Shown here: positions 2,023-52,926 of the stretch, piece after piece
How positions within the stretch are numbered: the first letter of the stretch is position 1
Layout of the letters: each line of letters starts with the position of its first letter
NCBI GenBank assembly: GCA_965222155.1
Contig: CBDCTH010000012.1
Coordinates: 1,792,001 to 1,856,000, forward strand
DNA from: Gammaproteobacteria bacterium
GTDB taxonomy: Bacteria > Pseudomonadota > Gammaproteobacteria > Eutrophobiales > Eutrophobiaceae
Length of the DNA stretch: 64,000 bases
Direction: 5' to 3'
Notes under the pieces: generated by a model
What the model was told of the DNA's origin: nothing
Databases searched by the model: none
What the model saw: the letters and a program-made list of their open reading frames with translations, nothing else
Position numbers and translations under genes: made by a program

Positions 2023-2164
2023 TGTTTCCCCCCGAGAAATGACAACACCCCACAAACAACTGTCTCAAAATAATAACAGTACTGTAGCAAAAATCCAACT
2101 TATTTCTGCGGAGTAAGTACAATTCCGCTCTCTTTTTCTCATTGCTCCGGTACGGAGAACAACT

Positions 2165-3457: not shown

Positions 3458-3526
3458 CCCCGCTACCGATACAATCTATGCGTATCCCTGTCCATAATGA
3501 CGCATATTCTATTGACATGCATCCAT

Positions 3527-5239: not shown

Positions 5240-5255
5240 CTGAAAATCTCTAAGT

Positions 5256-7298
5256 CTAAATGCTTGTCTTTATAACCAGGTGCCCAAAATCATCAACCAG
5301 ACAGGTCTGACTCGAATATATAACCGTGGTCGAAGTTCCTTCATCTATGATAGCCGGGCCTTTAATACTAACGCCAGGGCTTATCAGTTTACGATCAATA
5401 AGCTGAAACTCTTTCAATGTCTTATCCCTGAAACAGTAGGCCATTCGGCTGGCGTCAACTTTTTCAACGCCGGCTGAAGCGCTTCTTCCAGGCTGCTTTT
5501 TCAATTCAGGTTTGGTCATACGTCCGAGACCGGTCACTCGCAGGTTAACCAGTTCCAGAGGTTGTTCTGTCCTGTGCCCATATCGAAGTTCATGCGCAGA
5601 ATCAAATAACGAGCGCAAAACTCCATATTCAGGCATACCCTCTACCTGTATTTTGAGCGTGTGTTCCTGGCCCAGGTAACGCATTTCCAGATTCCGGATC
5701 AAATCCTGTTCTTCTGCCTGCACCCCTTGTTCCGTCAGGTTAAGTGATGCCTTTTTTTCCAGAGAATGAAACAGTTCATTTACCTGGGGTAAAATTGATT
5801 CTTCAAGTTCGACAATAAACGTCCGCGAAACATCAGTTGCCATATCCGCCATCAACATTCCCCATGCCGAGAATACTGACGGTACGTTTGGGATAATCGT
5901 AGTAGGGATACCCATTTCAAGCGCCAGTAACGGCGCAACCAGGGGGCCGGCCCCTCCAAATGCAAGAATTGTGAATTCTTTAGGATCTTTACCCTGTTCC
6001 ACCGTAATCTCACGCACTGCGCCTTCTGTCTGGGCTATCAACACTGAAAAGATTCCTGCTGCGGTTTTCAGGACATCACTTTCCATGGGAGTGGCCAATT
6101 CGGTTTCCAGTCCTTTGCGCGCTCCCGCGATATCGAGCGGTATTTCCCCATTGAGAAAATTATCCGGATCAATAAAACCAAGTATCAAGGCGGCATCTGT
6201 CAGGGTCGGTTGTTCTCCACCACGGCCGTAAGCAATTGGGCCGGGTTCCGCTCCTGCGCTGTGCGGGCCAAGCCTGAGCATACCTTCTTCCATCCAGGCA
6301 ATCGACCCGCCGCCGGCGCCGATACAACGAATATCAAAGGTAGGGATTAAAACCGGCATGTGTTGCAACCGGGTTTCATGGATCACATCTGGTGCTGCAT
6401 TTTCAATGACACAGGTATCCAGGCTGGTACCGCCGAAATCCATAGTCAGCATATGTCCCAGTTGTAATTGTTGAGCCAGGTAGGAGGCGCCTATAATCCC
6501 GCCGGCAGGACCTGAAAAGACACTGTCCAACGGCCTTTGTTTTGCTGTCTGCGCCGTCATCGCGCCACCACTACTACGCATTACCAAAAATCTTCCGGTA
6601 AACCCTTTACCTTGTAACTCAAAGAAGAGATCGTCTATATATTTCTCGAAGATAGGCCGGATATAGGCGTCAAGAACAGTGGTACAGGTACGCTCGTATT
6701 CCCTATATTCACGAACAACCTGGTTGGAAATTGATAGCCATATATCGGGGAAAAGTTCGCTGGCAATGCCGGCAATTTGCTGTTCATGCTCCGGGTTTTT
6801 GTATGAGTGCAGACAGCAGATTGCAAGTGATGACACATCCTGATTATGAACCAGGAGATTAACTGCATTGATGACAGCATTATTATCCAGTGCGATATCA
6901 ACTTCACCTTTTACATTAATACGTTCAGGCACACCGACAATGCAACGCCTCTGTACTAACGGATCAGGGCGTTGGTAATGCATATCATACATATGGGTAG
7001 CAGGCAGGTCGCCTCGTCCCAGTTCCAGTATATCCCGAAAGCCCCGGGTGGTAATTACTCCAACCCTTGCGCCGCGACGCTCAAGAATGGCATTGAGCCC
7101 CAGGGTAGTACCATGAACAATTGTCTCGACTTCGCTGAGATTAATTCCCAGTTTATCTACGGCATGCAGCACGCCGGTAGACGGGTTGTGCGGAACAGTC
7201 GGCGCCTTTTCAAGCCTGGTTTCACCTGTTTCTCCGTTAAACAGGATTGCATCCACAAACGTTCCGCCGATATCAATGCCCAGGTTATATTGCCTCAT
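5256..7298 (-). CDS. Hydantoinase A / oxoprolinase subunit
   Basis: GIDIGGTFVD, HGTT, SGPAGG, GAGGGS, SAGAEPGP and FGGAG motifs. The ATG at 7298 overlaps the upstream gene's TGA. Confidence 0.92.
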   Translation of the reverse strand: MRQYNLGIDIGGTFVDAILFNGETGETRLEKAPTVPHNPSTGVLHAVDKLGINLSEVETIVHGTTLGLNAILERRGARVGVITTRGFRDILELGRGDLPATHMYDMHYQRPDPLVQRRCIVGVPERINVKGEVDIALDNNAVINAVNLLVHNQDVSSLAICCLHSYKNPEHEQQIAGIASELFPDIWLSISNQVVREYREYERTCTTVLDAYIRPIFEKYIDDLFFELQGKGFTGRFLVMRSSGGAMTAQTAKQRPLDSVFSGPAGGIIGASYLAQQLQLGHMLTMDFGGTSLDTCVIENAAPDVIHETRLQHMPVLIPTFDIRCIGAGGGSIAWMEEGMLRLGPHSAGAEPGPIAYGRGGEQPTLTDAALILGFIDPDNFLNGEIPLDIAGARKGLETELATPMESDVLKTAAGIFSVLIAQTEGAVREITVEQGKDPKEFTILAFGGAGPLVAPLLALEMGIPTTIIPNVPSVFSAWGMLMADMATDVSRTFIVELEESILPQVNELFHSLEKKASLNLTEQGVQAEEQDLIRNLEMRYLGQEHTLKIQVEGMPEYGVLRSLFDSAHELRYGHRTEQPLELVNLRVTGLGRMTKPELKKQPGRSASAGVEKVDASRMAYCFRDKTLKEFQLIDRKLISPGVSIKGPAIIDEGTSTTVIYSSQTCLVDDFGHLVIKTSI

Positions 7299-8420
7299 CA
7301 ACGGTCATCCCTGATTATCTTGCCGCCTTGCATGACAAAAAATATTTCCCTCAACAGACTGATCTCCTCTAACGGGTTGCCGAATATCGCAATAAAATCG
7401 GCTTTGGCTCCAGGCCTGATTACACCCAGTTAGTCATTATCGATTAACGCGGCAGCATTGAGAGTGGCTGTCTGTATGACTTGCAGCGGGATCAAACCCG
7501 CTTCCAGACAATGTTCCATTTCACGCACTACGATTGGAGCGCCATCATCAGTGTCACCGGGGGGGATATCTGTTCCATTTACCAGGGTAACGCCTGCCTT
7601 GACGGCCGTCCTGATACTCTCAAGATGATCTGCTGCAGCAGAAACGGCTTTGCAGATTGTCCATTCTTCGAACCCATGCCTTCGCATCCAATCCTTGGAG
7701 CGGGTTACGCCAAGCGTAGGCACAATATAACCATCGGCTTCCTTGATGGCGGAGGCCGCCGTCAAATCCAGGTTATAGGTGTGTTCAAATGAACGTACCC
7801 CTGCCTTGACTCCTTTCATAATGGGATCGGAATCACCCACGTGAGCACAAACGTAGGTTCCCTTGCTGTTGGCAACCTCAACAGTAGCCCGAATTTCTTC
7901 GCCCGACATTTGTGATTCGGCAAACGTTTCATCTTTATGTGCGATACCCCCGGTCATAAAGATTTTTATATGGTTTGCTCCGGCCAGCAAATCCTCCCGG
8001 CACTTTTTCCTGAAATCGTCCGCGCCATCCGCCTCAGCCGTAAACCCGTGGCCGTGGCCACCGGTAACGGAAACGCCCAGTCCCGCAGAATATATGCGCG
8101 GGCCGCTTACCCACCCCGCGGCGATCGATTTACGCAACGCGATGTCAGCGCGATTCAATTCGCCCACTGTGCGTACGGTGGTTACCCCGGCCCGTAATGC
8201 TTCCTGTCCCCTGCTGTAAGCACGATAAGCCGATATGGCCGCGTCTTCCCCCGGGTCACTCAAGTGGAATGGAAATACGATAGTCAGGTGAGTATGACAA
8301 CTGATCAGCCCCGGCAATACATAGGCTCCCTGCATATCGATTACCTGCACACTTCCGTCCTGTTCAGCCACCCTGTCAATGGAGTGAATGTTACCGTCAC
8401 TGACAATGATTGCAGAGACA
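7298..8420 (-). pseudogene. Amidohydrolase pseudogene (5'-truncated, internal nonsense codon)
   Basis: PGLISCHTH...GTD motifs. After the TAA at 7430-7432 the frame continues LGVIRPGAKADFIAIFGNPLEEI...MQGGKII to TGA 7298-7300. The native N-terminus is missing upstream of ~8420. Confidence 0.85.
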
Positions 8421-8882
8421 ACCAACATCGGCGCCGAAGTGGAATTAGCGATTCGCCCCGCAGAGGGCCTGGATCTGAACTTCGGCTTTGGTATAACCGA
8501 CACGGAAATTGATGACTTTGATGGTTCCGGAATATTTGAAGGCCACAATACGCCGCAGGTAAACGACTATTCGATTAACGCTTCGGCCCAGTACACGATA
8601 CCGATTAGCGGTGCGTGGTCTGTCACCGGACGGTTGGATTATGAGCACCGGGGTAAAGTGGATTGGGATTTGAACAATCTCGTCACTACGCCAGGCAAGG
8701 ACCACCTCAATTTATACGCCGGTATCGGGAATGGTCATTGGACTTTGTTCTTCTACGGAAAGAACGTGCTGGACGAGCAACAACCGACCGCGATGGGAAC
8801 CGATGTATTTGGTCCCGGGATTCATCTCAGGACACCAAGTAGACCCGCTTCCTACGGCGTTGGCATCAAGGCTGACTTCTGA
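8420..8882 (+). pseudogene. Orphan 3' fragment of a TonB-dependent receptor
   Basis: GAEVEL...KNVLDE...PASYGVGIKADF C-terminal barrel strands with no start, plug or signal peptide. Confidence 0.85.
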
Positions 8883-8910
8883 ACAGGACAGGCCAACCGC
8901 ATACCGAACA

Positions 8911-8966
8911 GTCCGGGGACGAATTTCAAACATGCCCCCGCATGTTGTAAGCGGGGGGCCGTCCCC
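8911..8966. repeat. REP-like palindrome GGGGACG(G/A)ATTTCAAA..CCGTCCCC interrupted by a second hairpin
   Basis: Matches the intact copy at 56594-56618. Contains an inserted cccccgc-atgttgtaa-gcggggg hairpin (8931-8958). Confidence 0.65.
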
Positions 8967-9007
8967 CTCCCCCTTTGGCCTGCGCCGTCATGACATGCAG
9001 TTGCTCA

Positions 9008-9064
9008 TCATTCCAGCATATTACGGTAAACCTTACCGCCTTTCATCACCAGCAGGATATTGCG
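9008..9064 (-). pseudogene. 3' remnant of an amidohydrolase paralogous to 55221-56513
   Basis: Translates RNILLVMKGGKVYRNMLE*; DNA at ~8982-9064 aligns with ~55198-55280. Confidence 0.8.
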
Positions 9065-9246
9065 AGCGATATTTGGGCGCAACCCTACGGGCGACTGTCG
9101 CCATGCACAAATTTGCCTGGAGCTGTTGAACAGTCGAACCGCGCGAGACTGGCCCCGAAGGGGCAAAGTACAGGACGTACTTTGTAAATCGGCTATCCTG
9201 CCGATTTGTCACCGCATCGCCTGGAAATCCGGGCTAAAAGGTTAAG

Positions 9247-9885
9247 TCAGGACTTGACCCCATTTTGACGGTATGCGGATATAACGGCGCCGGCGTCCTG
9301 CCGGATATCGGATAATGATTTTCCTTTCCGGTATATGGCAGAGCCTATTCCAAATCCGTTAATCCCCTTTTGTATATATTCGGGCATGTTTTCAATGTTA
9401 ATACCGCCTACTGCAAGCAAGCAGAACCGTGGGGGAATAACGGCTCTGATTGCTTTGACTGCAGCAGGCGAGACAACTTCAGCAGGGAACATTTTTATCG
9501 CATCGGCTCCTGCTCGCATGGCAGTCAATACTTCCGTGGGCGTGCATGCGCCGGGAATGGACGTCATGTTTAATTTTTTTGTTTCATGGATAACGTCAAC
9601 ATCTGTATTGGGTGAAACAATCAGCATCCCGCCCGCTTCCCGCACTGCCGATATGTCACTGACGTCCAAGACCGTGCCGGCGCCAATCAGTACGTCGTTC
9701 CGATAATGCTGCGCCAGGAGTTCGATTGATTCACACGGCCGCGGAGAATTCAAGGGAACCTCGATAATGCCTATCCCCTCTCCTGTAAGAACATCCGCCA
9801 CAGCGATGACTTCAGCGGGTGTAATACCACGTAATATGGCAATCAGGGGAAGCTCTTTCAGATAGTTATCCAGCATGATTCTCAT
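9247..9885 (-). CDS. dgoA: 2-dehydro-3-deoxy-6-phosphogalactonate aldolase
   Basis: PLIAILRG, IEVPLNSP, IGAGTV, VSPN, KMFPA and AVGG motifs; adjacent to dgoK. Confidence 0.88.
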   Translation of the reverse strand: MRIMLDNYLKELPLIAILRGITPAEVIAVADVLTGEGIGIIEVPLNSPRPCESIELLAQHYRNDVLIGAGTVLDVSDISAVREAGGMLIVSPNTDVDVIHETKKLNMTSIPGACTPTEVLTAMRAGADAIKMFPAEVVSPAAVKAIRAVIPPRFCLLAVGGINIENMPEYIQKGINGFGIGSAIYRKGKSLSDIRQDAGAVISAYRQNGVKS

Positions 9886-10825
9886 CGATAATCCGTCTGA
9901 TCCGGGCCGATGTAATCGCTATCTTCCACAAACCATTAACCGAAGCGCCATCCGACGAGATGGGTTCAACGCCGATATCGAATTCAGCAAAGGCCAGACC
10001 ATACTGGTGCAGCAGGACGCGGTTGCCAATTAACGTAATCTTGTCAATCTCCGGATAAAACGTTAATCCGGCGCTGATTTCAGCCCCGATCAATATGCCG
10101 GAAAGATAACTGGAAAAAGCGCCCTGGTCGGACTCACCCGATACCAGGCGGGACCTGACCGAAAAGATATGATGAGAGAGACCACCTGGTTGACGACTCA
10201 TCCTGATTCCTTCCTCAAATGCCGCTTTATTAAACTCGTCAATCCTGATAACCGACTGAATGGAACCGGTAGTCTTGAGCGCCGTATATAATTCACCCGT
10301 TAAAAACGTCGTAAAACCGTTAATCTGATCCCCACTGACCGAGACCCATTTACTGTGTGTGCCCGGTAGGCATATCACCGTATCAGCAAGCTGATATTTT
10401 GACTGCAAGCCGATTATCTGAGTCTCCTCGCCGCGGATGACATCCGAAAATGCAGATATACTGTTGGAGGTGATACCCGGTACGATAAAAACGGGATTGG
10501 CATGGACCTCGGGGATTTTCACCAGGCATTGACTCAGCTGCCTGACAGCCATCGGACATTTCAGGTATGTCGTCTCGACCCATCCTTGTCGGCTACCGAT
10601 CATACCGCACATGATGACCGGCAAACCTGAAGCAGAGTTAAGCCATTGGTCACATGATGCATACAGAAAGTTTGCAAAGCCGCCATCCTGTTGCCGGAAA
10701 ACGCCCCCGTTATTTTCTGTTTTTTCGATCACCGTGCCGCCTCTGTCAAGCAAATAGGCACGGAACTGACTTGAGCCCCAGTCCACTGCAATTAAACATC
10801 CCGCCTTCATCATTGCCTCTTCCAA
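9866..10825 (-). CDS. dgoK: 2-dehydro-3-deoxygalactonokinase
   Basis: IAVDWGSS, GMIGSRQGW, DVIRGEETQ, LPGTHSKW, TFLTGE and YLSGILIG motifs. Confidence 0.92.
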   Translation of the reverse strand: MEEAMMKAGCLIAVDWGSSQFRAYLLDRGGTVIEKTENNGGVFRQQDGGFANFLYASCDQWLNSASGLPVIMCGMIGSRQGWVETTYLKCPMAVRQLSQCLVKIPEVHANPVFIVPGITSNSISAFSDVIRGEETQIIGLQSKYQLADTVICLPGTHSKWVSVSGDQINGFTTFLTGELYTALKTTGSIQSVIRIDEFNKAAFEEGIRMSRQPGGLSHHIFSVRSRLVSGESDQGAFSSYLSGILIGAEISAGLTFYPEIDKITLIGNRVLLHQYGLAFAEFDIGVEPISSDGASVNGLWKIAITSARIRRIIDENHAG

Positions 10826-12579
10826 TACATCAATAGCTGCCGACCTGAAAATGCCGTAATGCCGAACAGCGCCGCTGCCGTGAGGTAATTACCGTAGATG
10901 AGCGAACCAATGAAAAACAAGGCGCCATACCCGCACAGACAGGCCATGAAAAACGCTAACAAGGCATCGGTCATATTATACCCGGCGCTTGTCAGCACTA
11001 TTTCCTCACCGGCGGCGCGGGCCTCCTCGATGACCCGGCGCCAGCCGGGGCCCCGGGGTTGTACCAGGCGGAAGAAACGGCGCAGTACCGCCGGATCGGT
11101 TTGCGGTGTCATCAACGTGACCAGCAGCCATCCGACCGTGGTGATGGCAACACCGACAACCAGTTTCTCCCAATGAGTCCAGCCGGGTAAATCCACCAGG
11201 TGAAAGCTGAAGGCCACGATGAAAGAAATAATCATGGCAGCGATCTCGCTGTAGGCATTGATGCGCCACCAGAACCAGCGCAACAAAAACAACAGACCAG
11301 TGCCGGCGCCGATAGACAATAGGATATGAAACGCCTGCATGGCGGTTTCCAGGAATAATGCCAGGACACAGGCAATGAGCATCAACACCGGGGTTACCAT
11401 ACGCCCGACCAGCACCAGTTGCCCCTCCGTCGCTTCGGGCCTGATGAAGCGCCGGTAAAAATCGTTGACAAAATAGGACGCCCCCCAGTTCAACTGGGTC
11501 GACATGGTGGACATATAAGCACAAATCAATGAGGCCATGACCAGTCCCAATAACCCGTGAGGCAGGTATGTCAACATCGCCGGATAGGCAAGATCATGCC
11601 CGATAACCTGCTCATCGACGTGGGGGAACCTTGATTGGATCGCGGCCAGGTCGGGAAACACGACCAATGAGGCCAAGGCAACCAGAATCCAGGGCCAGGG
11701 ACGCAAAGCATAGTGCACGAATTGAAATAACAGCACCGCGCCCATGGCATGATGTTCGTTTTTTGCCGCTAACATGCGCTGCGCGATGTAGCCACCGCCA
11801 CCGGGTTCCGAGCCTGGATACCATACGCTCCACCATTGCACGGCAACCGGAATGATAAAGACCGCGATGGCTGTTTCGGGCTCGGAAAAATCCGGAAAAA
11901 AAGACAATTTGTCCACTACGTTCGGGTGGCTGAGCAGGTTGTTCAACCCCCCCACTTCCGGTAAATTCACGGTGACCCAGGCCGCACATATGGAGCCGAC
12001 CATGGAGATCGTGAACAACACCAAATCTGTCAGTACCACGCCCAGAAATCCTCCCATGGCGCTGAAAACAGTCACCACGACAGCGGCGATGGCGAGAGTT
12101 TGTATCGGGGTCAAATCCAGTATCACCGCACCGATCTTGATTGCCGCCAATGTCACCAGGGCCATCACCATCACGTTGAAGAAAACACCCAGGTAAAGGG
12201 CGCGAAACGCCCGCACCGCGCTCGCGGCCTTACCGCTGTAACGAATTTCATAAAACTCGAGGTCCGTAAAAACACCGGACTGCCGCCACATCCTGGCATA
12301 AACAAAACACGTCAACATACCCGTAAGCAAAAACGCCCACCACACCCAGTTTCCCGACACGCCATCGTTCCTGACAATATCGGTAACGAGGTTGGGTGTA
12401 TCGGTGGAAAAAGTGGTAGCGACCATGGAAGTACCCAATAACCACCACGGCATATTTCGACCGGAGAGAAAAAACGAACTGCTGTCTTTACCTGCCCGCT
12501 TACTGACGCAGGCGCCAATGACGATTGCGGTAACGAAAAAGAAACCTATCAAACACCAGTCTATGAAGCTGAGTATCAT
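10810..12579 (-). CDS. Sodium:solute symporter (SSS)
   Basis: FFLSGRNMPWW, SMVATTF, YIAQRMLAAK; about 13-14 TM segments. Confidence 0.9.
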   Translation of the reverse strand: MILSFIDWCLIGFFFVTAIVIGACVSKRAGKDSSSFFLSGRNMPWWLLGTSMVATTFSTDTPNLVTDIVRNDGVSGNWVWWAFLLTGMLTCFVYARMWRQSGVFTDLEFYEIRYSGKAASAVRAFRALYLGVFFNVMVMALVTLAAIKIGAVILDLTPIQTLAIAAVVVTVFSAMGGFLGVVLTDLVLFTISMVGSICAAWVTVNLPEVGGLNNLLSHPNVVDKLSFFPDFSEPETAIAVFIIPVAVQWWSVWYPGSEPGGGGYIAQRMLAAKNEHHAMGAVLLFQFVHYALRPWPWILVALASLVVFPDLAAIQSRFPHVDEQVIGHDLAYPAMLTYLPHGLLGLVMASLICAYMSTMSTQLNWGASYFVNDFYRRFIRPEATEGQLVLVGRMVTPVLMLIACVLALFLETAMQAFHILLSIGAGTGLLFLLRWFWWRINAYSEIAAMIISFIVAFSFHLVDLPGWTHWEKLVVGVAITTVGWLLVTLMTPQTDPAVLRRFFRLVQPRGPGWRRVIEEARAAGEEIVLTSAGYNMTDALLAFFMACLCGYGALFFIGSLIYGNYLTAAALFGITAFSGRQLLMYWKRQ

Positions 12580-12594
12580 TTTCCTATTCTGTAT

Positions 12595-14037
12595 TTATGC
12601 AATAAACCGGCCGGGGCGTCTGCCGGTTTCTTCTCCGTTCTGCCAGGTACACTGGCCATTGACAAACACGTAATCTATCCCGGTTGCCGGTTCGCATGGA
12701 TTTTCATAGGTTGCATTATCACGAATTTTATCCGGGTCTATCACTACCAGGTCGGCAAACAGGTGGGGACGTATCGCGCCGCGGCTCGCTATCCTGAATT
12801 GTGATGCCGCCAAGCCCGTCATCTTATGAACAGCCGTCTCCAACGAGAACAGTTGCTCATCACGGGCATAATGCCCCAGCACCCGTGGAAACGTTCCCCA
12901 CAGTCGTGGATGGGGTTGGGGGTCGTTGGGCAAACCATCCGAACCGATCATGGTTGACGGATGCTTTAACACCCGGCGGACGTCATCTTCATGCATCTGA
13001 AAATAGCAGGCGCCCCCGGGCAATAAACGCTCCGCTGCCTCCTTCTGGCTACATTGCCAATCTTTGGCAACATCATGCAGGTAGCGCCCGCCCATTTCAG
13101 GGCGAGATTCAGACCAGGTGATGAGTATTTTTATCTTGCCATCCACCAGGGCGGGTTCCAACACACTCGAACCGGCAGTGTAGGGATAACAATCGATATT
13201 GACCGTCCGGGTCTGCCTGACTTCATCCAGCAATTTCAGCGTTTCTTTTGTTCCCCCCCAGTTTTGCAGACCGGCGCATTTATGGTGCGATATGATTAAG
13301 GGGGTCTGTCCCCGCTCAGCCGTGGTAAAGGCTTCCTGCATGGCCTCGATAACGTGATCATATTCATCGCGCAAATGCGCTGCATAGACTCCCTGTCGCT
13401 CGCCCGCGAGCCTGACCAGCGGCACTAATTCATCCACGTCTGCCGCCCTTCCCGGTGGATAATACACACCACTGCTGAGACCGGCAGCGCCGGCGTTGAA
13501 AGCCTCTTCCAGCAGTTTCAACATGGCATCAAGTTCAGCCGTGGAGGCTTTTTTGTTGACATCACTCATGGTGGCGAGCCGCAAGGTTGAATGCCCCACC
13601 AAAGCAACGATATTGACCGCGGGTTCTGCTTGTTCGACAGCCTCGACGTAACTTTGAAAATCAGCAAACTCGAATTCGATATGGCCGCCTAACAGATTCA
13701 GCGGCTCGACCAGCGCCGAAGCACGAAATAACGGGGCCAGGCTGATGCCACAGTTACCGACAATCACCGTCGTCACCCCCTGGCTGATTTTGGGCCGCAT
13801 GGCCGGTCTATCGATACACACGCGATCATCATGCGTATGCACGTCGATAAATCCCGGACAGATGATCTTGCCGCGGATATCCACCACCTGCTCCGCTTCG
13901 GCCTGACCGAGTCGACCCACACTCATGATCCGGTCCCCGCTGACGGCGACATCGGCGGCAAATCTCCCGGCGCCGGTACCGTCTATGACTTCACCACGGC
14001 GAAAAACCAGATCATATGTGGGTGCGCCATGCAGCAT
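12595..14037 (-). CDS. N-acyl-D-amino-acid deacylase family (D-aminoacylase)
   Basis: PGFIDVHTHDD, QGVTTVIVGNCG, HLRDE, SHHK, GSDG and PHPRLWGTFPRVLG motifs. Confidence 0.9.
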   Translation of the reverse strand: MLHGAPTYDLVFRRGEVIDGTGAGRFAADVAVSGDRIMSVGRLGQAEAEQVVDIRGKIICPGFIDVHTHDDRVCIDRPAMRPKISQGVTTVIVGNCGISLAPLFRASALVEPLNLLGGHIEFEFADFQSYVEAVEQAEPAVNIVALVGHSTLRLATMSDVNKKASTAELDAMLKLLEEAFNAGAAGLSSGVYYPPGRAADVDELVPLVRLAGERQGVYAAHLRDEYDHVIEAMQEAFTTAERGQTPLIISHHKCAGLQNWGGTKETLKLLDEVRQTRTVNIDCYPYTAGSSVLEPALVDGKIKILITWSESRPEMGGRYLHDVAKDWQCSQKEAAERLLPGGACYFQMHEDDVRRVLKHPSTMIGSDGLPNDPQPHPRLWGTFPRVLGHYARDEQLFSLETAVHKMTGLAASQFRIASRGAIRPHLFADLVVIDPDKIRDNATYENPCEPATGIDYVFVNGQCTWQNGEETGRRPGRFIA

Positions 14038-14052
14038 GGATACCCGAATTAA

Positions 14053-15348
14053 TCAGAAAAACGTCCGTATACCGTCGATGACGTTATAGTCGTCATCCAC
14101 CAGCCACAATAATTGCCATTTATCAAAAGTCGTACACGGATGGGAAATACCGAGGGCAACCATATCCCCGACGGCCAGGTCCGGCTCACCGGAAAAGCGC
14201 AGGTAGGCATGTTGATCATTCAGCGCAAATATTGCCATTTCGCTGTGTGCCACTTCAGGCATTTTCATCTGCCCCGGTCGGAACCATTTTTCCACCACCG
14301 GGAGATCAACGTCATAAGAAACATCCCGTTTACCGGCTGTAAGAATAGCTAAGCCGGGTTCAGGAACGGATTGAACGTAGGCCCATACTTCGAGCGCGGG
14401 CCGAAGCCGGTCGCTGACTTTATCCGCGCATCTGGCCCGGATATTTTGAAAATGGCGTTCGTAGAAAACCGAGTCATGGGTAAGATAACAACCACTGCGG
14501 ATAATCGCTTGTACGAATCCCTGTTTTACCTGGTTGAGTACCGGTACGACAATATCAAAATACGCCGAGCCGCCGGCGCTTAACAACACACGTCGGGGAT
14601 TGGCAAACAAGTCCAGGGATTGACAACGCCGGTACGTAGCCACAACTTGTGCGAGCAGGTCGCCGATACGACGCTCATCTTCCTGTGGTTCGCTGCCGTC
14701 GATGATACCCTCATAGCACGCCACGCCATGAAGCTCGATTGATGGTTGTGCTGCGATCGCGCCGGCTACTCCGAGTGCATCGACCAGGCTGCGGCAGCCC
14801 GTGCGTCCCCCCTGGATACCGATTTCCAACAGAACTCTTATATGGACCGCTGCGCCCATCTCCGGCAGCAGGTCTTGTAAGCGCTCGGCGCCAGCAATTG
14901 AATCGACGAGACAGTAGAATTCGAACGCGTCATCCCGGGCTAATTCTGTGGCAACGTATCGGATATCATCCAGGCCCACCAGCTGGTTGGCCATGAGTAC
15001 CCGTTGTACGCCGAAACGCCGGCAGACTTGCAACTGCTGAACCGTCGCAACCGTCATTCCCCAAGCGCCGTATGTCAGTTGCAAATCAAACAACTGCGGC
15101 GCCATGGTCGTCTTTCCATGGGGCGCTATCAGGGCATTTTCTGCACTCAGAAAATCCCGCATCCAAGCGGCATTATGTTCAAGTGCACTCTGTTTTATAA
15201 CGGCGCCGGGTAGCGGGATTTGCTCTTCCAACAGGTTCCAACGTTGCCTGGCAACGTCCGCCAACAATATATTTGCGCCGTCATCGGGCAGGCCTTTCGT
15301 GCCCGCTTGCAGCGGCGTCGCCAGTAACGCGTCCAATACCAGCGCCAC
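14053..15348 (-). CDS. Fold-type III PLP amino-acid deaminase/dehydratase (DSD1 / D-serine deaminase-like)
   Basis: APHGKTTMAPQL PLP-lysine motif, GGRTG, RSGCY, GKRD, NDQH and SHPCTTFDKW motifs. Confidence 0.88.
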   Translation of the reverse strand: MALVLDALLATPLQAGTKGLPDDGANILLADVARQRWNLLEEQIPLPGAVIKQSALEHNAAWMRDFLSAENALIAPHGKTTMAPQLFDLQLTYGAWGMTVATVQQLQVCRRFGVQRVLMANQLVGLDDIRYVATELARDDAFEFYCLVDSIAGAERLQDLLPEMGAAVHIRVLLEIGIQGGRTGCRSLVDALGVAGAIAAQPSIELHGVACYEGIIDGSEPQEDERRIGDLLAQVVATYRRCQSLDLFANPRRVLLSAGGSAYFDIVVPVLNQVKQGFVQAIIRSGCYLTHDSVFYERHFQNIRARCADKVSDRLRPALEVWAYVQSVPEPGLAILTAGKRDVSYDVDLPVVEKWFRPGQMKMPEVAHSEMAIFALNDQHAYLRFSGEPDLAVGDMVALGISHPCTTFDKWQLLWLVDDDYNVIDGIRTFF

Positions 15349-16136
15349 TAAAACGCCTCAAGCGTCAGTTCACCGGCCATGACGGCATTGCCGGCGGTTA
15401 AACCGGCGTCCACCGGTATCACCGCGCCGGTTATGCAACGGGCATCACTGGAAGCCAGGAAGCCACAAAGCGCGGCCACGTCCTGCGGTTCGGCAAAATA
15501 ACCTAAGGGATACCATTTTCTCAGCTGTTCAAAAACTTCCGGGTTTTTTGCAGTGCGTGCATCCCAGGCTGGTGTCTTAATCGTAGCCAGGTTCAACAGG
15601 TTGGCCCGGATCCCTTTGCGCCCATATTCAACTGCAAGCGATTTGGTATAGCTGATCAAACCGGCCTTGGCCGCGCTATAGGCAGGATGTCCCAGGGTAG
15701 AGAGTGAGTTGACTGAACCGATGTTGATGATCACCCCCCCAGCATGAGTCAACATCGCTTCCTTGACGATCTCCACACAGTGATACGCACCGGTTAAATT
15801 GAGATCGATGTCCTGCCGCCAGGATTGCGGAGTGACCTTGGCTAAAGCCGTCGCCGCGGCTCCGCCGGCATTGTTTACCAGGATCCCGACATGACCGGTT
15901 TTATCGACCACGGGTTGCACCGCAGCCCGCAGGGCGGACAAATCCGTCACGTCAGCTGCAACGGGCAAACAGTTCTCGCCCAATGAAACAGTCAGTCTTT
16001 GTAACTTTTCCCGATTTCTTCCAACGGCCAGTACGGTGGCGCCGCGCTCACAAAAATACCGGCACAGACCTTCACCAACGCCGCCAGCGGCGCCGGTGAC
16101 CAGGACAATTTTTTTTTCAAAGTGATACCCGTTCAT
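15348..16136 (-). CDS. Short-chain dehydrogenase/reductase
   Basis: TGAAGGVG, NNAG and YSAAK motifs. Confidence 0.9.
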   Translation of the reverse strand: MNGYHFEKKIVLVTGAAGGVGEGLCRYFCERGATVLAVGRNREKLQRLTVSLGENCLPVAADVTDLSALRAAVQPVVDKTGHVGILVNNAGGAAATALAKVTPQSWRQDIDLNLTGAYHCVEIVKEAMLTHAGGVIINIGSVNSLSTLGHPAYSAAKAGLISYTKSLAVEYGRKGIRANLLNLATIKTPAWDARTAKNPEVFEQLRKWYPLGYFAEPQDVAALCGFLASSDARCITGAVIPVDAGLTAGNAVMAGELTLEAF

Positions 16137-16193
16137 CGATAAACCTTACCTTGATAACAGTCGTTCACGCTAGAAGACAACCCCCAAACCTCT

Positions 16194-16214
16194 GTTAACC
16201 CGGATATTGCACCA
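16194..16214. repeat. 21-bp repeat GTTAACCCGGATATTGCACCA (inverted copy at 18503-18523)
   Basis: Exact reverse-complement match read directly from the sequence. Confidence 0.8.
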
Positions 16215-17403
16215 GTTCGTTTGGCGGGACCCCATTGCCTTGATGACTAATCGCTTGCCCCAGCCACTGCAAATTGACGGATGGCAGCATGTCATAGTGA
16301 TAAAAGGCAATATCCCGGATACCCAGTGTCTGAACACCGGCAACGGTATCCACCACCTGCTCCCGACTTTGCATATCAGGCCAACCCGGTCGCAGAATGG
16401 CGCCAAGCCGGTCAGTCCCGCCGGTTTTCCGGACGACGTATTTGCCCTCCGATATTGCCGCCTCTACCGACGGCTGATAGAGAGGCAACTCCAGTCCCTC
16501 CGCCGTATCGTACAATGCCGGCAGATCATGCCCCTCCAGGACACTGGTGGTATGCGACCGTTGGGTCGTCGAAATGATTTTCATCTTTACGGAGGAACGA
16601 ATCGCTGCCCGTATCTCCTTGACGAGCAAGGTGACGGTAGCGCAGCGCCAGCGCAGAAAGGCATTAAGCTCATCGTCTCCGAATATACCGTTTTCCGGCC
16701 AACCCGTGACTGTTTCACTGTGGGGTAAGTCGCTGTTCAGATAACCATCAATTGCCTCTCTCACACGGCGCTGTAAGGACGCGCCGTCTATACCGGTCTT
16801 AGCGGCGCCGGCAATACAGTGATCACAGAAGCATAATCCCAACCAGGCATCCAGCCGGGGGTCAGGCCGAACCTGGGCAAATTCATGATGATAGCCATGG
16901 CTGTAAGCCAGATAACCCGGGGTTTCGAGCAATAACGTATCAATGGGATAATGCCCGGCAAGGTCCTGACATAGGGTCAACGCATACTGACGGACCTCAG
17001 GATGGGCAGGGCATAAACTATAAACATAGCCATCGCCAAAGGCATTTCTAACGGTAATCTCGGGATATAGCATCCCCAGCCGGGTGTTATGCAGCAACAC
17101 GGTCCAGGCATTGACGACCAGGTCTTCGCGTTCCGCCAACAGTGCCAGAACGTCATCTTGTTCAAGCAGCCTGCTGGTCAACGGCTTGACCTTGCCGTAG
17201 CTTAAACGCGGTTTAAAGTAGACAACCCCATCCTCCGGGAAATAGACCCGATGACGATTGCTGCGCGGATGAATGAACTTGCCGGTGTGATAACTCGCCG
17301 CAAGGTTGATGCCCTGCAGTCCGGAAGAGAGAATTTCATCGACCCTTTCATCTGATTTCTCTGCTGATAAATTCCAAGGATAGGCATAGATGGAATAACT
17401 CAT
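16195..17403 (-). CDS. Conserved hypothetical protein, probable TIM-barrel (glycoside-hydrolase-like) with Cys motifs
   Basis: YAYPW, LAASYH, LCPAHPEVRQY and LCFCDHC motifs; sits within the catabolic operon. Confidence 0.6.
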   Translation of the reverse strand: MSYSIYAYPWNLSAEKSDERVDEILSSGLQGINLAASYHTGKFIHPRSNRHRVYFPEDGVVYFKPRLSYGKVKPLTSRLLEQDDVLALLAEREDLVVNAWTVLLHNTRLGMLYPEITVRNAFGDGYVYSLCPAHPEVRQYALTLCQDLAGHYPIDTLLLETPGYLAYSHGYHHEFAQVRPDPRLDAWLGLCFCDHCIAGAAKTGIDGASLQRRVREAIDGYLNSDLPHSETVTGWPENGIFGDDELNAFLRWRCATVTLLVKEIRAAIRSSVKMKIISTTQRSHTTSVLEGHDLPALYDTAEGLELPLYQPSVEAAISEGKYVVRKTGGTDRLGAILRPGWPDMQSREQVVDTVAGVQTLGIRDIAFYHYDMLPSVNLQWLGQAISHQGNGVPPNELVQYPG

Positions 17404-17427
17404 GATAACCGGCCCTGGTATGTCAGA

Positions 17428-17814
17428 TCATTCGGGCTTGTAGGCTATGACGTCAATCTCGACCTTGGCATCGACCATAATCTGCGATCGAACACAGGAC
17501 CGGGCCGGCGGCGCCTCCCCAAAGTATTCCGCATAGACGCGATTAAACGCCTGGAAGTCCCGCGTATCATCCAGCCACACATTGACCTTGACGACATCGG
17601 CCAACGTGCAGCCGGCTTTGTTGAGTATTGCAATGATATTTTCCATGGTTTTATGAGCCTGCGGAACAATACCACCGGCAATGATCTCACCCTGGTCATC
17701 CATCGCGACCTGCCCGGAGACAAAGATAAACCCCCCTGCCTGCGTAGCCTGGCAGAATGGTAAACTCTGCCCGCCGCTGCCTGTTTTCATCCCACCCGTT
17801 CGCTTAATGCTCAC
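17428..17814 (-). CDS. RidA/YjgF family protein
   Basis: VSGQV, DVVKVNVWL, FNRVY and PPARS...VEID motifs; AGGAGG RBS. Confidence 0.92.
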   Translation of the reverse strand: MSIKRTGGMKTGSGGQSLPFCQATQAGGFIFVSGQVAMDDQGEIIAGGIVPQAHKTMENIIAILNKAGCTLADVVKVNVWLDDTRDFQAFNRVYAEYFGEAPPARSCVRSQIMVDAKVEIDVIAYKPE

Positions 17815-17931
17815 TTGATCACACCTCCTACAAACCTGATTTGAATTTAACCCCGCGATAGCTGTTGGGCTGTTGAACCCCCCAGGGCACTTTTCACTGA
17901 CGAGAGAATCGAGCGGGTAAATATAATAAAG

Positions 17932-17985
17932 AGTAATTATACTACATAAAAATAAAATACACGAGTATTTTGCAATTTTATTACA
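17932..17985 (-). promoter_or_regulatory. Two HexR-like operators upstream of the catabolic operon
   Basis: Minus strand TGTAGTATAATTACT (17932-17946, contains TATAAT) and TGTAATAAAATTGCA (17971-17985). Confidence 0.7.
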
Positions 17986-18009
17986 TTAGTAATGGTCAAT
18001 ACCGACTGC

Positions 18010-18320
18010 CCCCCAAGTGTCGAAGTCAAATTCCCCACCTGTGGATAAAATAAGTCGTGCATCATGCGGCGCTCCCGCGTGGTGGTTGTCACTGAAGATA
18101 GTCCTCCAGTCCTGAAAGCCGCGATTGGACGTGGGGAGAGCGACCTGGCTTGCAGCGCCACCCGCTGTCCTCCCCCAACGGCTGGTAGTGGCTGTCATCC
18201 AAAATCCGGGCCTGCTCTGTCTGGGGCAATTGCCTGAGTTTGGCGCCGACAATGTAATGGAAGCCAGCCTCTTCCAGGGCGGTCAGATTGGCCTCATTGA
18301 GCAAGCCCCCGATCAGCCAC
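18010..18320 (-). mobile_element. IS1634-like transposase remnant
   Basis: GLLNEANLTALEEAGFHYIVGAKLRQL fragment; GTGTCGAAGTCA end-like motif at ~18017. Confidence 0.55.
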
Positions 18321-18502
18321 GCACCCTCTGCCGCACATCGTACTTCGCCTGCAGTGATTTGACCACCGGGATGAGGCTGTGACCTTACGACGTCAAGTGT
18401 AGAGAGTAAAATTCTTAAAGTATACGGTTGCCCTGGCTTTGGGTTGACAAAACCTTCGTAACCCATTGACAGCATTTTACTTTTCACTTAGGATAAGCGA
18501 TT

Positions 18503-18523
18503 TGGTGCAATATCCGGGTTAAC
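18503..18523. repeat. Inverted copy of the 21-bp repeat at 16194-16214
   Basis: TGGTGCAATATCCGGGTTAAC. Confidence 0.8.
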
Positions 18524-18544
18524 CCCATACAGCGAGGAAACACC

Positions 18545-18724
18545 ATGCAAGCAGCTAAACAAGAAGCACTCAACACCATTGGTCAACTGCCGGAGGATAC
18601 CGACCTGGATGAGATCATGTACCGGCTCTATGTGCTGGATAAGATCAGGAAAGGGCAGAAAGCCGTAAAACAGGGCAAGACTATTACCAGCGGTGAACTC
18701 GAGCGGGAAATCGATTCATGGTGA
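18545..18724 (+). CDS. Putative antitoxin (59 aa)
   Basis: Below the ORF-track cutoff: MQAAKQEALNTIGQLPEDTDLDEIMYRLYVLDKIRKG...EIDSW; GAGGA RBS; overlaps the toxin start. Confidence 0.8.
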   Translation: MQAAKQEALNTIGQLPEDTDLDEIMYRLYVLDKIRKGQKAVKQGKTITSGELEREIDSW

Positions 18725-19011
18725 CTTGGTCAGAACCGGCCAAGGCTGATTTGCGCTCCATCCACGATTTCATTGCCCACGATTCTCGCCACTACGCCAA
18801 GAAGGTAGCCCAAGACATCAGGGAGAAAACAGATATCTTAGACGGCTTGCCGAAGATCGGTAAGAAAGTGCCACAATTGAATGATGAGAATATCAGGGAG
18901 CTATCGCTGTATTCCTACCGGATCATCTATGAGATCAAAGATCAGGGCATCTTTGTACTGGCTGTAGTGCATAAACGGCAGAATCTAAACGTTGAGGAGA
19001 TTGAGCAGTAG
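18718..19011 (+). CDS. RelE/ParE family toxin
   Basis: WS..AKADL..I.DFIA.DS...GKKVP...IREL...YRIIYEI motif. Confidence 0.9.
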   Translation: MVTWSEPAKADLRSIHDFIAHDSRHYAKKVAQDIREKTDILDGLPKIGKKVPQLNDENIRELSLYSYRIIYEIKDQGIFVLAVVHKRQNLNVEEIEQ

Positions 19012-19193
19012 CATTTTTCAGCATTGAATTTATCGAAGCCTCTGCATAACAGCGAATATCCTTAATAGCACCTCGCTGGTCTATACACTCAGTTACAGGG
19101 GGAGTCGAGAGTGAGCAATGAAGCTGCTTCCATCGAAACAGGCGGAAGGTGCTTTATACACACTTGCACGAGAAATTAATTCGGCGGGAAATA

Positions 19194-19389
19194 TTGCTGA
19201 TAAATGCACGTCAACTGAATAAATAACATATTACAAAAAAATTAAAAAGTCATCGGAGTTTTGACTTTAAATTACATTTTAATCTGTTTTGTAATGTTTG
19301 CACATAATAAAAGGGGATCATCAGACAAGACTTGAATGGAAGAATTTAAAGCTTATTTCGATGCTTAATGTAGATTATTGACTGGATAT
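19194..19389. promoter_or_regulatory. AT-rich regulatory block, diverged direct copy at 44463-44650
   Basis: Shared blocks ttgctgataaatgcac, tgactttaaattacattttaa and gaagaatttaaagcttattt.gatgcttaatgtagatt.ttgactggatat. Confidence 0.8.
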
Positions 19390-19711
19390 ACCCTGAATTT
19401 CTATGAATTTGACATATTCAACCTTTTATGAAAAATTATTTTATATGAATTTTACCACCAGCCTAGAGTAGAAAAATTTTCTTCTTGGGGTTATTGGGGT
19501 TATTATCTATCGGGAAAGAGGTAAAGGAAGATGATGCGACTGGATTTCCGCTTGCACGGGAATAGCTTCGGAAGCGCTGAAGCGACGGGGAAATGTCTGC
19601 TTCAAGTTGCCATCGAGCAGAGGAACCATTACTGCTCAGTAGAAAATCGTAGTGACTTTACAATCAGAGAATGATTATTTTCATATTTTATCATCTCAAA
19701 TCAGTATTGCT

Positions 19712-20632
19712 ATGGCGAAAAACTCTATAAAGTTTTCAACAAAGGATGTAAACCACGCTACGGATTTCCTTTCTGTTGTAAGGCAGGCTTACCCTACCTT
19801 AAGCAAGTCTGATAAAAAGATTGCACAATTCTTATTGGAAACACCTGAGCGCTTTGCCAATGCCAGCGTCAAGGACGTTTCCAATATAGCTGGTGTCAGT
19901 GACGCAACCGTTGTCCGGTTTGGCAGAAATCTGGGCTGTGGCGGCTTTAAAGATCTGAAAATCCTGCTGGTTAAGCACTTGGCCACAAAGCAAGCACTGG
20001 CCGATGCCGGGAATGCACCGGTGGACTTGTCAACAGGGTCGTTTGTCGACCGAATCCACCGCTCTGCTTTAACCGTGCTGGAACAAGCCGCCCGTCACAT
20101 CAAACCGGATAAACTCGATGAGGCCGCACAGATTATCCATCAGGCACGGCGGGTGTTTATCTATGGCACCGGTGGCAGCTCCGGTATTTTAGCCGCCGAG
20201 TTACACAATAGATTATTTCGCCTGAATATCATGGCCACCCCGTTCACTGATAATTATTTGCAACGCATGTCAGCATCAACACTCACTGCGGCGGATGCGA
20301 TCATCATCCTCTCTTCCACCGGCCGGCCTCGTTCCTTACAGGATAGTATGGAACTGGCACAACACTACGGCGCCAAATGCGTGGCCATCACCGACGAAAG
20401 CAGTGTCTTGTCGGTGCAAGCCGATGTCTGTATTCACGTAGAACTAAGCCAGTTCGGTGTCGCACATAATCAACCCAATCCCATGCGCTTCGCACAACTC
20501 TTTGCCATTGATTGTCTTTGTTACCAGGTCGCATCATTACTTGGTGATGAGGCCGAGAAATCCCTCCAGCGAGTGCGCGCCAGCGTCGCTTCCCTGCATG
20601 GCATCGTCCCACAACAGCCTATCGGCGATTAG
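19712..20632 (+). CDS. RpiR/MurR (HexR-like) transcriptional regulator
   Basis: HTH (LSKSDKKIA...VSDATVVRF...GFKDLK) plus SIS domain (YGTGGSSG, SSTG). Confidence 0.92.
   Translation: MAKNSIKFSTKDVNHATDFLSVVRQAYPTLSKSDKKIAQFLLETPERFANASVKDVSNIAGVSDATVVRFGRNLGCGGFKDLKILLVKHLATKQALADAGNAPVDLSTGSFVDRIHRSALTVLEQAARHIKPDKLDEAAQIIHQARRVFIYGTGGSSGILAAELHNRLFRLNIMATPFTDNYLQRMSASTLTAADAIIILSSTGRPRSLQDSMELAQHYGAKCVAITDESSVLSVQADVCIHVELSQFGVAHNQPNPMRFAQLFAIDCLCYQVASLLGDEAEKSLQRVRASVASLHGIVPQQPIGD
20517..20630 (+). repeat. 114-bp direct repeat, left copy (3' end of the regulator gene)
   Basis: Matches 54954-55067 with 2 mismatches by eye. Confidence 0.92.
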
Positions 20633-22368: not shown

Positions 22369-22372
22369 TAAG

Positions 22373-23599: not shown

Positions 23600-23629
23600 T
23601 ACGTATCCGTCCTCAGTGGTTAAAAAACA

Positions 23630-24124: not shown

Positions 24125-24135
24125 GTTAATCGGCA

Positions 24136-24615: not shown

Positions 24616-24616
24616 C

Positions 24617-26566: not shown

Positions 26567-26577
26567 GTCCTTATCCA

Positions 26578-28849: not shown

Positions 28850-28949
28850 TCCAGACATATTCAGTGTTGTTAGTAATTTTCTTTGTTTATACCCGAATGC
28901 TTATATATACTGAATTGACGAAGACAATCAGAATGACGATGGACTTTGT

Positions 28950-50649: not shown

Positions 50650-50693
50650 CGCTTGTCGGAAAGACAGAATGATCAACAAACTGCTGAGAGCGT

Positions 50694-52322: not shown

Positions 52323-52326
52323 AATT

Positions 52327-52800: not shown

Positions 52801-52926
52801 AAAGATGGCCCCAAGGCTACTAGTCCTTATCCTAACAGATGGGCTAAATTTAACGATTATGCATCAGAGTATGGCTGGAAAGAGAGAGAGAATGATCAAT
52901 ATGTTTCAATTTCTCAACCTCCCGAA

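Follow-up and report, generated by a model that had tools for sequence, protein, structure and literature searches.

A conserved gammaproteobacterial operon with a proposed oxidative route for N-acetylgalactosamine

How might a bacterium use N-acetylgalactosamine (GalNAc) when the key enzymes of the phosphorylative routes are not found in its genome? The question is raised by an operon at positions 9247-17814 of a 64,000-nucleotide stretch of contig CBDCTH010000012.1 (hereafter the window) from a gammaproteobacterium of the Eutrophobiaceae (assembly GCA_965222155.1; completeness estimated at 100%, contamination at 7%). Mucins, chondroitin sulfate, glycolipids and many microbial exopolysaccharides contain GalNAc as a major constituent. 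The bacterial routes for it in the searchable literature all phosphorylate the sugar first: the Aga/Nag routes, such as the E. coli aga regulon and Shewanella AgaK/AgaAII/AgaS, then proceed via tagatose-6-phosphate. In the De Ley-Doudoroff pathway, on the other hand, D-galactose is degraded by galactose dehydrogenase, a lactonase, DgoD, DgoK and DgoA. We consider it probable that the window operon encodes an oxidative GalNAc route that adds no phosphate until the last intermediate, in effect the De Ley-Doudoroff pathway adapted to an amino sugar, with a core like that of the ong cluster for N-acetylglucosaminic acid. It is best described as an ong-like core re-tuned to the galacto isomer, fed by a dehydrogenase and an uncharacterised partner, with the De Ley-Doudoroff kinase and aldolase as its last enzymes. 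A full-text search, with little coverage of subscription journals, found no paper on a galactosaminate or N-acetylgalactosaminate route, its hits being abbreviations, chemistry papers or UDP-GlcNAc dehydrogenase, and the available portions of the text of two fitness-data papers (10.1101/072470, PMC9007349) make no mention of it.

The operon, its relatives and the proposed route

The eight genes lie co-directionally on the minus strand (Table 1), with gaps of 24, 58, 15 and 15 nt and overlaps of 1, 16 and 20 nt, and form a single tightly packed operon. Seven of them had been named in an earlier sequence-only reading, which proposed a non-phosphorylative GalNAc pathway, and open reading frame (ORF) positions and family profiles recover all seven on that strand. 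As a complete set, however, that list fell short, since it overlooked an eighth gene, lying between the RidA and short-chain dehydrogenase/reductase (SDR) genes and encoding an uncharacterised protein that we call unk402. A consensus promoter and terminator scan over 8600-19700 returned fewer sites than shuffled sequences, and nothing usable.

Table 1. Operon genes and other features of the window discussed in the text (aa, amino acids; PLP, pyridoxal phosphate).
Feature	Position	Strand	Profile evidence
RidA-family imine/enamine deaminase, first operon gene	17428-17814	-	PF01042 1.1e-30; TIGR00004 108.9 bits (cut-off 106.25)
unk402, uncharacterised (beta/alpha)8 glycoside-hydrolase-like protein, 402 aa	16195-17403	-	PF02638 GHL10 26.4 bits (cut-off 27.9)
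Classical SDR oxidoreductase	15348-16136	-	adh_short_C2 5.2e-53
Fold-type III PLP D-serine-dehydratase-like enzyme	14053-15348	-	D-ser_dehydrat (PF14031) 3.8e-20; Ala_racemase_N (PF01168)
D-aminoacylase-fold amidohydrolase	12595-14037	-	Amidohydro_3 4.9e-31
SSS sodium:solute symporter	10810-12579	-	PF00474 3.2e-31; TIGR00813
DgoK, 2-keto-3-deoxygalactonate kinase	9866-10825	-	PF05035 2.8e-86
DgoA, 2-keto-3-deoxy-6-phosphogalactonate aldolase	9247-9885	-	NF006600 261.4 bits (cut-off 207)
RpiR/MurR-family protein (HTH_6 + SIS), candidate regulator, OngR counterpart	19652-20632	+	PF01418 3.5e-19; PF01380 6.4e-13
FN3-TonB-dependent receptor fusion, 1861 aa, possible outer-membrane glycan importer	31330-36915	-	Plug, OMP_b-brl_3 and fn3 domains
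Second GH123 gene, as two ORFs: 45388-48237 (949 aa) and 44735-45391 (218 aa)	44735-48237	-	GH123_cat 2.6e-32, over cut-off
GH123 family protein (beta-N-acetylgalactosaminidase family)	48475-50727	-	GH123_cat 1.4e-55
GH20 beta-N-acetylhexosaminidase, signal-peptide-like N-terminus, proposed N-acetylhexosamine supplier	50694-52337	-	PF00728 2.2e-108

Close orthologs of the PLP enzyme (63-72% identity) were found in five other genomes of the same genus among 40 relatives searched. The order RidA-unk402-SDR-PLP enzyme-deacylase is kept in the four congener neighbourhoods fetched, with protein identities of 60-87%; in the fifth congener (G006) the PLP ortholog lies on a 2.8-kb contig. DgoK and DgoA genes adjoin the cluster in three of these four neighbourhoods, and the symporter gene in one. 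Alteromonadaceae XY-R5, Sphingomonas, Asticcacaulis, Rhodanobacter and Burkholderiales have the same five-gene order, and because it is kept both in congeners and in distant lineages the arrangement is not a matter of chance. Culturable carriers of orthologous clusters include Sphingomonas flavalba, Undibacterium baiyunense, Alteromonadaceae XY-R5 and Asticcacaulis. A wider view comes from a profile scan of one genome per species, which returned 487 loci encoding an unk402 relative, the best 80 of which were fetched; neighbours were counted at the 52 of these with at least 6 kb on both sides. An SDR gene stands next to unk402 at 50 of the 52, an amidohydrolase of any kind is nearby at 36, and the PLP enzyme, RidA and RpiR are nearby at 22, 21 and 19, respectively.

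Based on these gene families, we propose the following route. GH123 and GH20 enzymes, secreted or periplasmic, would release GalNAc from a beta-GalNAc glycan, and the symporter would import it. SDR would oxidise C1 to the lactone, which unk402 would open, this being the weakest step. The OngB-like amidohydrolase would then remove acetate from N-acetyl-D-galactosaminate, and the OngC-like PLP enzyme would eliminate the C3 hydroxyl and the amine to give 2-keto-3-deoxygalactonate (KDGal), with RidA speeding imine hydrolysis. Finally, DgoK would phosphorylate KDGal and DgoA would cleave the product, yielding pyruvate together with glyceraldehyde-3-phosphate. The symporter, proposed as the importer of either GalNAc or the acid, is encoded once in the genome and has orthologs inside the clusters of the related genome G018 (77%), Alteromonadaceae XY-R5 (67%) and locus L023 (61%).

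That the nutrient would be GalNAc, as the sequence-only reading had it, is suggested by the glycosidases. The window holds the genome's only GH20 match and all three of its GH123 matches, the proteins of both families have signal-like N-termini, and GH123 is described as strictly specific for terminal beta-GalNAc (PMC11087588). At the level of the catalytic domain both window GH123 genes score over the cut-off; the family is further marked by a catalytic motif of consecutive Asp and Glu. In the operon-bearing congener G010 both families stand beside the operon: RidA-unk402-SDR-PLP enzyme-deacylase-GH20 is followed by DgoA/DgoK, GH123 genes, the FN3-TonB receptor, RpiR, GH53 and GH2, with the GH20 gene on the same strand 10 nt downstream of the deacylase gene and a 1411-residue protein like the FN3-TonB receptor encoded between GH123 and RpiR. 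Among 41 related genomes, GH123 occurs in three, all of which belong to the six that carry the operon; these genomes are kin, so that the coincidence does not amount to a statistical test. Further afield, the cluster of Alteromonadaceae XY-R5 comes immediately after GH88 and DUF4861 genes, and that of a Rhodanobacter metagenome-assembled genome is flanked by GH35, a GH88-DUF4861 fusion and a gene resembling a PL8 chondroitin lyase. The GH88 and PL8 flanks fit chondroitin-type glycans, whose amino sugar is GalNAc, and they fit hyaluronan, with N-acetylglucosamine (GlcNAc), as well.

The phosphorylative routes take the same nutrient and likewise release acetate and ammonia, but NagA/AgaA and AgaS were not found in the genome of the window: the best genome-wide match to NagA scores 26.6 bits (TIGR00221, cut-off 225.65) and that to AgaS 24.8 bits (TIGR02815, cut-off 529.2; NagB was not searched for). 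A search of the 23 genomes of the genus likewise turned up no NagA. Without NagA and AgaS, hexosamine freed by GH20 and GH123 would have no other visible route. The genomic and computational evidence thus independently supports the earlier GalNAc interpretation, in which the route differs from the phosphorylative Aga pathway.

Deacetylation, deamination and the galacto-type end

The chemistry that we assign to the deacetylase, the deaminase and RidA rests on published experiments with homologs acting on the gluco isomer. The ong cluster of Pseudoalteromonas prydzensis ACAM 620 encodes a TonB receptor, an SSS transporter, RpiR, a beta-hexosaminidase, KdgK, RidA (OngD), OngB and OngC; it is induced by N-acetylglucosaminic acid (GlcNAc1A), and deletions of its genes abolish growth on that acid (Jiang et al., 2022; PMC9537276). 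OngB yields glucosaminate and acetate, OngC yields 2-keto-3-deoxygluconate (KDG) and ammonia, and KdgK phosphorylates the product; OngC is reported to be broad in substrate, deaminating D-Ser and D-Thr too (PMC9537276). That a 2-acetamido sugar acid can be treated like an N-acetyl-D-amino acid and then passed to a PLP enzyme and RidA, as put forward in the sequence-only reading, has therefore been proven on the gluco isomer by OngB, OngC and OngD. That reading did not cite the ong precedent, of which the window route is a variant rather than a wholly new idea.

What the two systems share is a D-aminoacylase-fold deacetylase followed by a fold-type III PLP deaminase with RidA, leading to a 2-keto-3-deoxy-hexonate that is then phosphorylated, together with an SSS transporter, RpiR, an associated beta-hexosaminidase and a TonB receptor. 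Unlike ong, the window operon adds SDR and unk402, ends in the galacto-type DgoK/DgoA rather than a PfkB-type KdgK, and probably takes in a free sugar rather than an acid. With the De Ley-Doudoroff pathway the proposed route shares C1 oxidation, lactone opening, KDGal as an intermediate and the kinase and aldolase; it differs in that DgoD is replaced by the deacetylase, the PLP ammonia-lyase and RidA, and in that the lactonase candidate is of an unrelated fold.

The PLP enzyme, which stands in the same operon as RidA and retains the Lys and His/Cys motifs of its family, matches the 'D-serine deaminase' 3gwq at 3.1e-104, an alignment that pairs both its HGKT lysine motif and its SHPC motif, and is 45% identical to the PLP enzyme of the ong-like locus L014. 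We propose that it is a D-galactosaminate ammonia-lyase giving KDGal, the counterpart of OngC, as RidA would be that of OngD.

The amidohydrolase is proposed to be an N-acetyl-D-galactosaminate deacetylase, the counterpart of OngB. It has the D-aminoacylase fold with its Cys/His/His metal site and catalytic Asp (H67 and H69 of the HxH motif, C96, H221, H251 and D367), and its PDB sequence matches are KleDacyl (9g5m, 1.6e-155), AfDam (1m7j, 1.5e-146) and PpOngB (9kb1, 9.6e-133). The OngB structure names the substrate-holding residues, those for specificity being Ala193, Ser290, Ser292, Gln298 and Gly348 (Wang et al., 2025; PMC12017989). When positions are transferred by a PpOngB numbering offset, itself verified at six residues that are strictly conserved, the window protein shows Tyr192, Gly289, Ser291, Leu297 and Gln347 instead, so that only the Ser292 equivalent is kept; in PpOngB the positions changed here touch the C5/C6 hydroxyls or line the distal pocket (PMC12017989). 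The control ong-like loci L014, L125 and L126, in contrast, show the published OngB pattern (Ala, Ser-Ser-Ser, Gln, Gly or Cys) in the same alignment.

Of 36 unk402-linked deacylases aligned, 35 cover every signature position (that of L073 is incomplete and covers only position 192, a Trp), and all 35 agree with the window protein in having an aromatic side chain at 192, Gly289 and Ser or Thr at 291. At position 297, 34 of the 35 have a hydrophobic or aromatic residue (L025 has His), and at position 347, 31 have Gln (L032, L058, L069 and L070 have Leu). In the deacylase tree the loci with the window gene order make up a 16-row clade (support 100/99) that spans class boundaries; the three ong-like rows form a clade of their own (100/100), and the 35 unk402-linked rows fall on one side of a weak branch (74/82). 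The residues thus point to a specificity class distinct from OngB. Compared through the same PpOngB offset, the window protein does not reproduce the hydrophobic pocket of AfDam, which consists of Phe191, Met254, Leu298 and Met346, with Thr at the Ser292 position (PMC12017989): Tyr192 and Leu297 fit this pocket, and Ala255, Gln347 and Ser291 depart from it.

The last two enzymes are of the galacto type. DgoK is the sole copy in the genome by profile search, and two PfkB-kinase/Eda-like pairs lie elsewhere, their PfkB genes either on another contig or at a distance of about 365 kb or more; these findings and the family-level matches uphold DgoK and DgoA as the end of the route, as first suggested. 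No galactonate dehydratase DgoD is over the cut-off genome-wide (best NF010624 matches 123 and 117 bits against 311, far from the operon), so nothing else in the genome was seen to feed DgoK. The association also extends beyond the window, with DgoK within 10 kb at ten loci of an 18-row deacylase clade; in all five tested genomes whose cluster lacks an adjacent DgoK the gene occurs elsewhere in the genome, compared with two of 14 control genomes, and PfkB-like ORFs were seen at only two of 85 loci. As the elimination leaves C4 and C5 of the hexonate intact, KDGal as the product would imply an amino-sugar acid of the galacto series, or of the rarer talo, gulo or ido series.

The main rival is a general N-acetylhexosamine route, in which GlcNAc would pass through the same first four enzymes to KDG, to be finished by the PfkB/Eda pairs, while GalNAc would go to KDGal and be finished by DgoK and DgoA. 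Such a route would be served by an N-acetylhexosamine 1-dehydrogenase activity of broad scope, which has been recorded (EC 1.1.1.240) and for which we know of no gene. GH20 enzymes release both sugars, the genus lacks NagA and would need a route for GlcNAc too, two PfkB and Eda-like pairs are at hand in the genome, and the breadth of OngC (PMC9537276) would suit both isomers. However, the deacylase lacks the very PpOngB residues that bind the C5/C6 hydroxyls of GlcNAc1A (Ser290 and Gln298), and the kinase that is co-located is DgoK and not PfkB. We regard this broader route as unlikely, at about one chance in a handful.

The dehydrogenase, unk402 and the remaining alternatives

In the GalNAc route that we favour, SDR would act as a GalNAc (N-acetylhexosamine) 1-dehydrogenase. 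Its catalytic motifs are present (NNAG; Y153-x3-K157), and its closest structure is 5tt0 (1e-75), an uncharacterised structural-genomics entry; glucose and sulfoquinovose 1-dehydrogenases match it at about 1e-32, no better than FabG-type reductases do. At position 39 an Asp, the usual marker of a preference for NAD, is found in at least 90% of 20 orthologs, compared with Gly39-Arg40 in the window protein, which may therefore differ from its relatives in cofactor preference.

The sequence-only reading had seen no lactonase; within the same interval, unk402 is now the best candidate for one. It belongs to a conserved family, with a mean column identity of 60% over 20 diverse members and with invariant polar residues that include H39, K42, D58, H105, N106, R108, E160, an H169/H172/H173/E174 motif, E290, D293, R338 and D343, as well as the cysteines C131, C191, C193 and C196. 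Its relatives in the database (824 proteins at E<=0.001 among 8000 scored candidates) are all annotated as 'hypothetical', a homolog being encoded, for example, by Sphingomonas koreensis DSMZ 15582, and the ESM Atlas gives only unnamed clusters, the nearest named family being GHL10. There is no PDB sequence match, and the profile compared with PDB reaches Cwp19 only at E 0.51. The AF2 model, with a predicted local distance difference test score (pLDDT) of 86.8 and a predicted template-modelling score (pTM) of 0.88, is a (beta/alpha)8 barrel whose best structural matches are all glycosidases: Cwp19 (Z 26.9; root-mean-square deviation 2.8 over 288 residues), BpsB/PgaB of GH153 (Z 24.6) and GH42 (Z 21.6), with Foldseek placing PgaB at 1.1e-13 and a template-modelling score of 0.58. 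The likeness to the GHL10, GH153 and GH42 enzymes (Cwp19, the PgaB C-terminal domain and the Thermus A4 beta-galactosidase) is thus one of fold, at Z 21-27; sequence identity to them is 13-16%, and unk402, which has no visible signal peptide at its N-terminus, appears to be cytoplasmic, single-domain and paired with SDR. The four-cysteine cluster is reminiscent of the GH42 zinc site. A prediction of the unk402-SDR complex scored 0.00, which gives no verdict either way.

Our tentative proposal, to which we give rather less than even odds, is that unk402 is the N-acetylhexosaminono-lactonase acting after SDR, because it is tightly paired with SDR, because both are absent from acid-importing ong-like loci, and because dehydrogenase-lactonase pairs are usual in oxidative sugar routes. 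Two complete ong-like loci of the same class (L014 and L126) lack SDR and unk402 and have the PLP enzyme, RpiR, the deacylase, RidA and a GntP acid-sugar permease; GntP, for its part, occurs at none of the 80 unk402 loci, which have SSS, MFS or ABC systems instead. Such a division between neutral-sugar and acid importers is what would be expected if SDR and unk402 convert an imported neutral sugar to the acid, and we propose that the two make up a sugar-to-acid module. A bolder version, for which we would give somewhat less than even odds, is that unk402 represents a new family in which a glycosidase-fold barrel was recruited to hydrolyse N-acetylhexosaminono-1,5-lactones, and that with SDR it forms a portable two-gene module, turning amino sugars into amino-sugar acids, that has been added to ong-like cores in many phyla as a widespread, undescribed GalNAc route. 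N-acetylhexosaminono-1,5-lactones are classical tight-binding inhibitors of hexosaminidases.

The main alternative for unk402 takes its fold at face value: a small GalNAc glycoside or disaccharide would be imported, unk402 would be a true cytoplasmic glycosidase freeing GalNAc for SDR, and the lactone would open by itself. Every strong structural match is indeed a glycoside hydrolase, and the invariant Glu160 lies at the end of the weak Cwp19 sequence match, near the presumed acid position. Moreover, aldono-1,5-lactones hydrolyse spontaneously at neutral pH (their equilibrium is noted in PMC12017989). Yet monosaccharides are the usual cargo of SSS and MFS carriers, GH20 and GH123 with their signal-like N-termini would already yield the monomer, and no second invariant carboxylate could be placed, by sequence comparison, at the nucleophile position. 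The pairing of unk402 with SDR across phyla that use very different transporters also fits consecutive steps on one small molecule, and we consider the glycosidase role improbable.

Still less likely, to a degree that we would call slight, is an ordinary ong-type cluster for GlcNAc1A, with DgoK and DgoA as mere neighbours or accepting KDG. The core gene set is the same and GH20 is associated as OngA is, but no AA10 lytic polysaccharide monooxygenase, the ong-type source of acid, is found in the genome (no match to PF03067), the OngB specificity residues are absent here although true ong-like loci from this class have them, the kinase that recurs with the cluster, in at least three lineages, is DgoK and hardly ever PfkB, and the ong-like loci use the acid-type GntP, in place of the sugar-type transporter of the window operon, and lack SDR and unk402. 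Degradation of an N-acyl-D-amino acid such as N-acetyl-D-serine or N-acetyl-D-threonine, with the sugar-acid genes coincidental, is hardly credible: the deacylase, with matches of about 490-520 bits and the same metal and catalytic residues, is by score closest to enzymes of proven D-acylase activity (PMC12149444) and OngC-type enzymes deaminate D-Ser and D-Thr (PMC9537276), but this reading leaves the conserved SDR, unk402, DgoK/DgoA, sugar transporters and glycosidase neighbours of a sugar-catabolism context unexplained, and Ala255 and Gln347 replace Met residues of the hydrophobic AfDam pocket (PMC12017989).

Several observations weigh against the oxidative GalNAc route and should be set beside the evidence for it. 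Of the six genomes of the genus that carry the operon, three lack GH123, the window glycosidases lie 27-35 kb from the operon and outside it, and GH20 and the neighbours typical of glycosaminoglycan loci (GH88, PL8) are equally compatible with GlcNAc. The comparison of SDR with PDB found no characterised close relative; the fold of unk402 is of a glycosidase and not a lactonase type, and we know of no lactonase with this fold. In overall score the deacylase is nearer to the true D-acylases (9g5m, 1m7j) than to PpOngB, and it has an aromatic residue at 192 and Leu297 in common with AfDam, which acts on hydrophobic substrates. Among the 52 counted loci, DgoK is near unk402 at only seven, and our model leaves unexplained both the Gfo/Idh/MocA oxidoreductase found at 30 and the 16 at which no amidohydrolase was seen.

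If true, the route would explain the use of GalNAc by bacteria without NagA and AgaS, such as this genus, after its release by GH123 and GH20, and it would extend the ong chemistry of 2022, in which a sugar acid is treated as an N-acetyl-D-amino acid, from products of chitin oxidation to a free and abundant sugar. It would also give a function to a conserved family of 'hypothetical proteins' found at 487 genomic loci, allow carbon sources to be predicted better from genomes, and provide enzymes with which amino-sugar acids could be made or sensed.

A different role for unk402 and SDR, in unsaturated-uronate metabolism in the manner of KduI/KduD, was considered and rejected: GH88 was not found in the genome, the pair mostly occurs without GH88, and the deacylase substrate would still need a dehydrogenase. 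Two further sightings of unk402 relatives may be recorded. Silvimonas and Massilia loci carry unk402 without the pathway, in housekeeping contexts that offer no lead. The Rhodanobacter metagenome-assembled genome encodes at 1320-2474 of its locus (L020) a second unk402-like paralog, of 384 residues and with no Pfam match, between a DHDPS-family aldolase and an MFS transporter and upstream of GH35 and the GH88-DUF4861 fusion.

Regulator, glycosidase region and other neighbours

The rpiR gene is set apart from the operon by an antitoxin-like ORF and a 97-residue RelE/ParE-like ORF, both read by eye, and by ORFs without a family match (18546-19011 on the plus strand and 17986-18487 on the minus strand). 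The last 114 nt of rpiR (20517-20630) are duplicated 34 kb away (54954-55067) at 98% identity, and about 190 nt upstream of the gene (19194-19389) recur upstream of the FN3 operon (44463-44650) at 77-94%; these repeats may be a shared control region or the scar of a rearrangement. A search for 9-mers common to the regions upstream of the operon, of rpiR, of the FN3 operon and of GH20 gave only possible half-sites of the ATTAC/GTAAT type, picked out by eye in AT-rich DNA.

Between rpiR and the receptor and glycosidase genes lies a type II secretion cluster (20677-31106, plus strand), with genes for a GspE-like ATPase, GspF, a secretin and others, which may export the GH123 and GH20 enzymes. Beside the glycosidases the window also encodes a 2009-residue FN3-rich surface protein as well as the FN3-TonB receptor fusion. 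Over 35573-43977 the genes for these two proteins carry tandem repeats of 345 nt and 600 nt with up to 100% identity, and GC content there is 60-64%, compared with about 50% elsewhere in the window.

The second GH123 gene appears to be split by a frameshift or an assembly error: its GH123_cat match covers positions 12-190 in the 949-residue ORF and 223-324 in the 218-residue ORF, the two ORFs overlap by 4 nt, and both halves lie in one open frame in G006 and G010. In G010 (C3:1336148-1365274) an open frame of 18,507 residues has at least ten GH123_cat-like matches and a second, of 4,156 residues, has two; these giant frames would be repeat proteins built from the glycosidase domain. Upstream of the GH20 gene, 52338-52926 gives a partial translation, read by eye, that resembles a transposase helix-turn-helix, hinting at mobile-element remnants around the glycosidase genes.

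Finally, just downstream of the operon, 643-8548 on the minus strand encodes hydantoinase/oxoprolinase A and B, two amidohydrolases and a permease of the cytosine/purine type, which looks like a separate cluster for the utilisation of cyclic amides.

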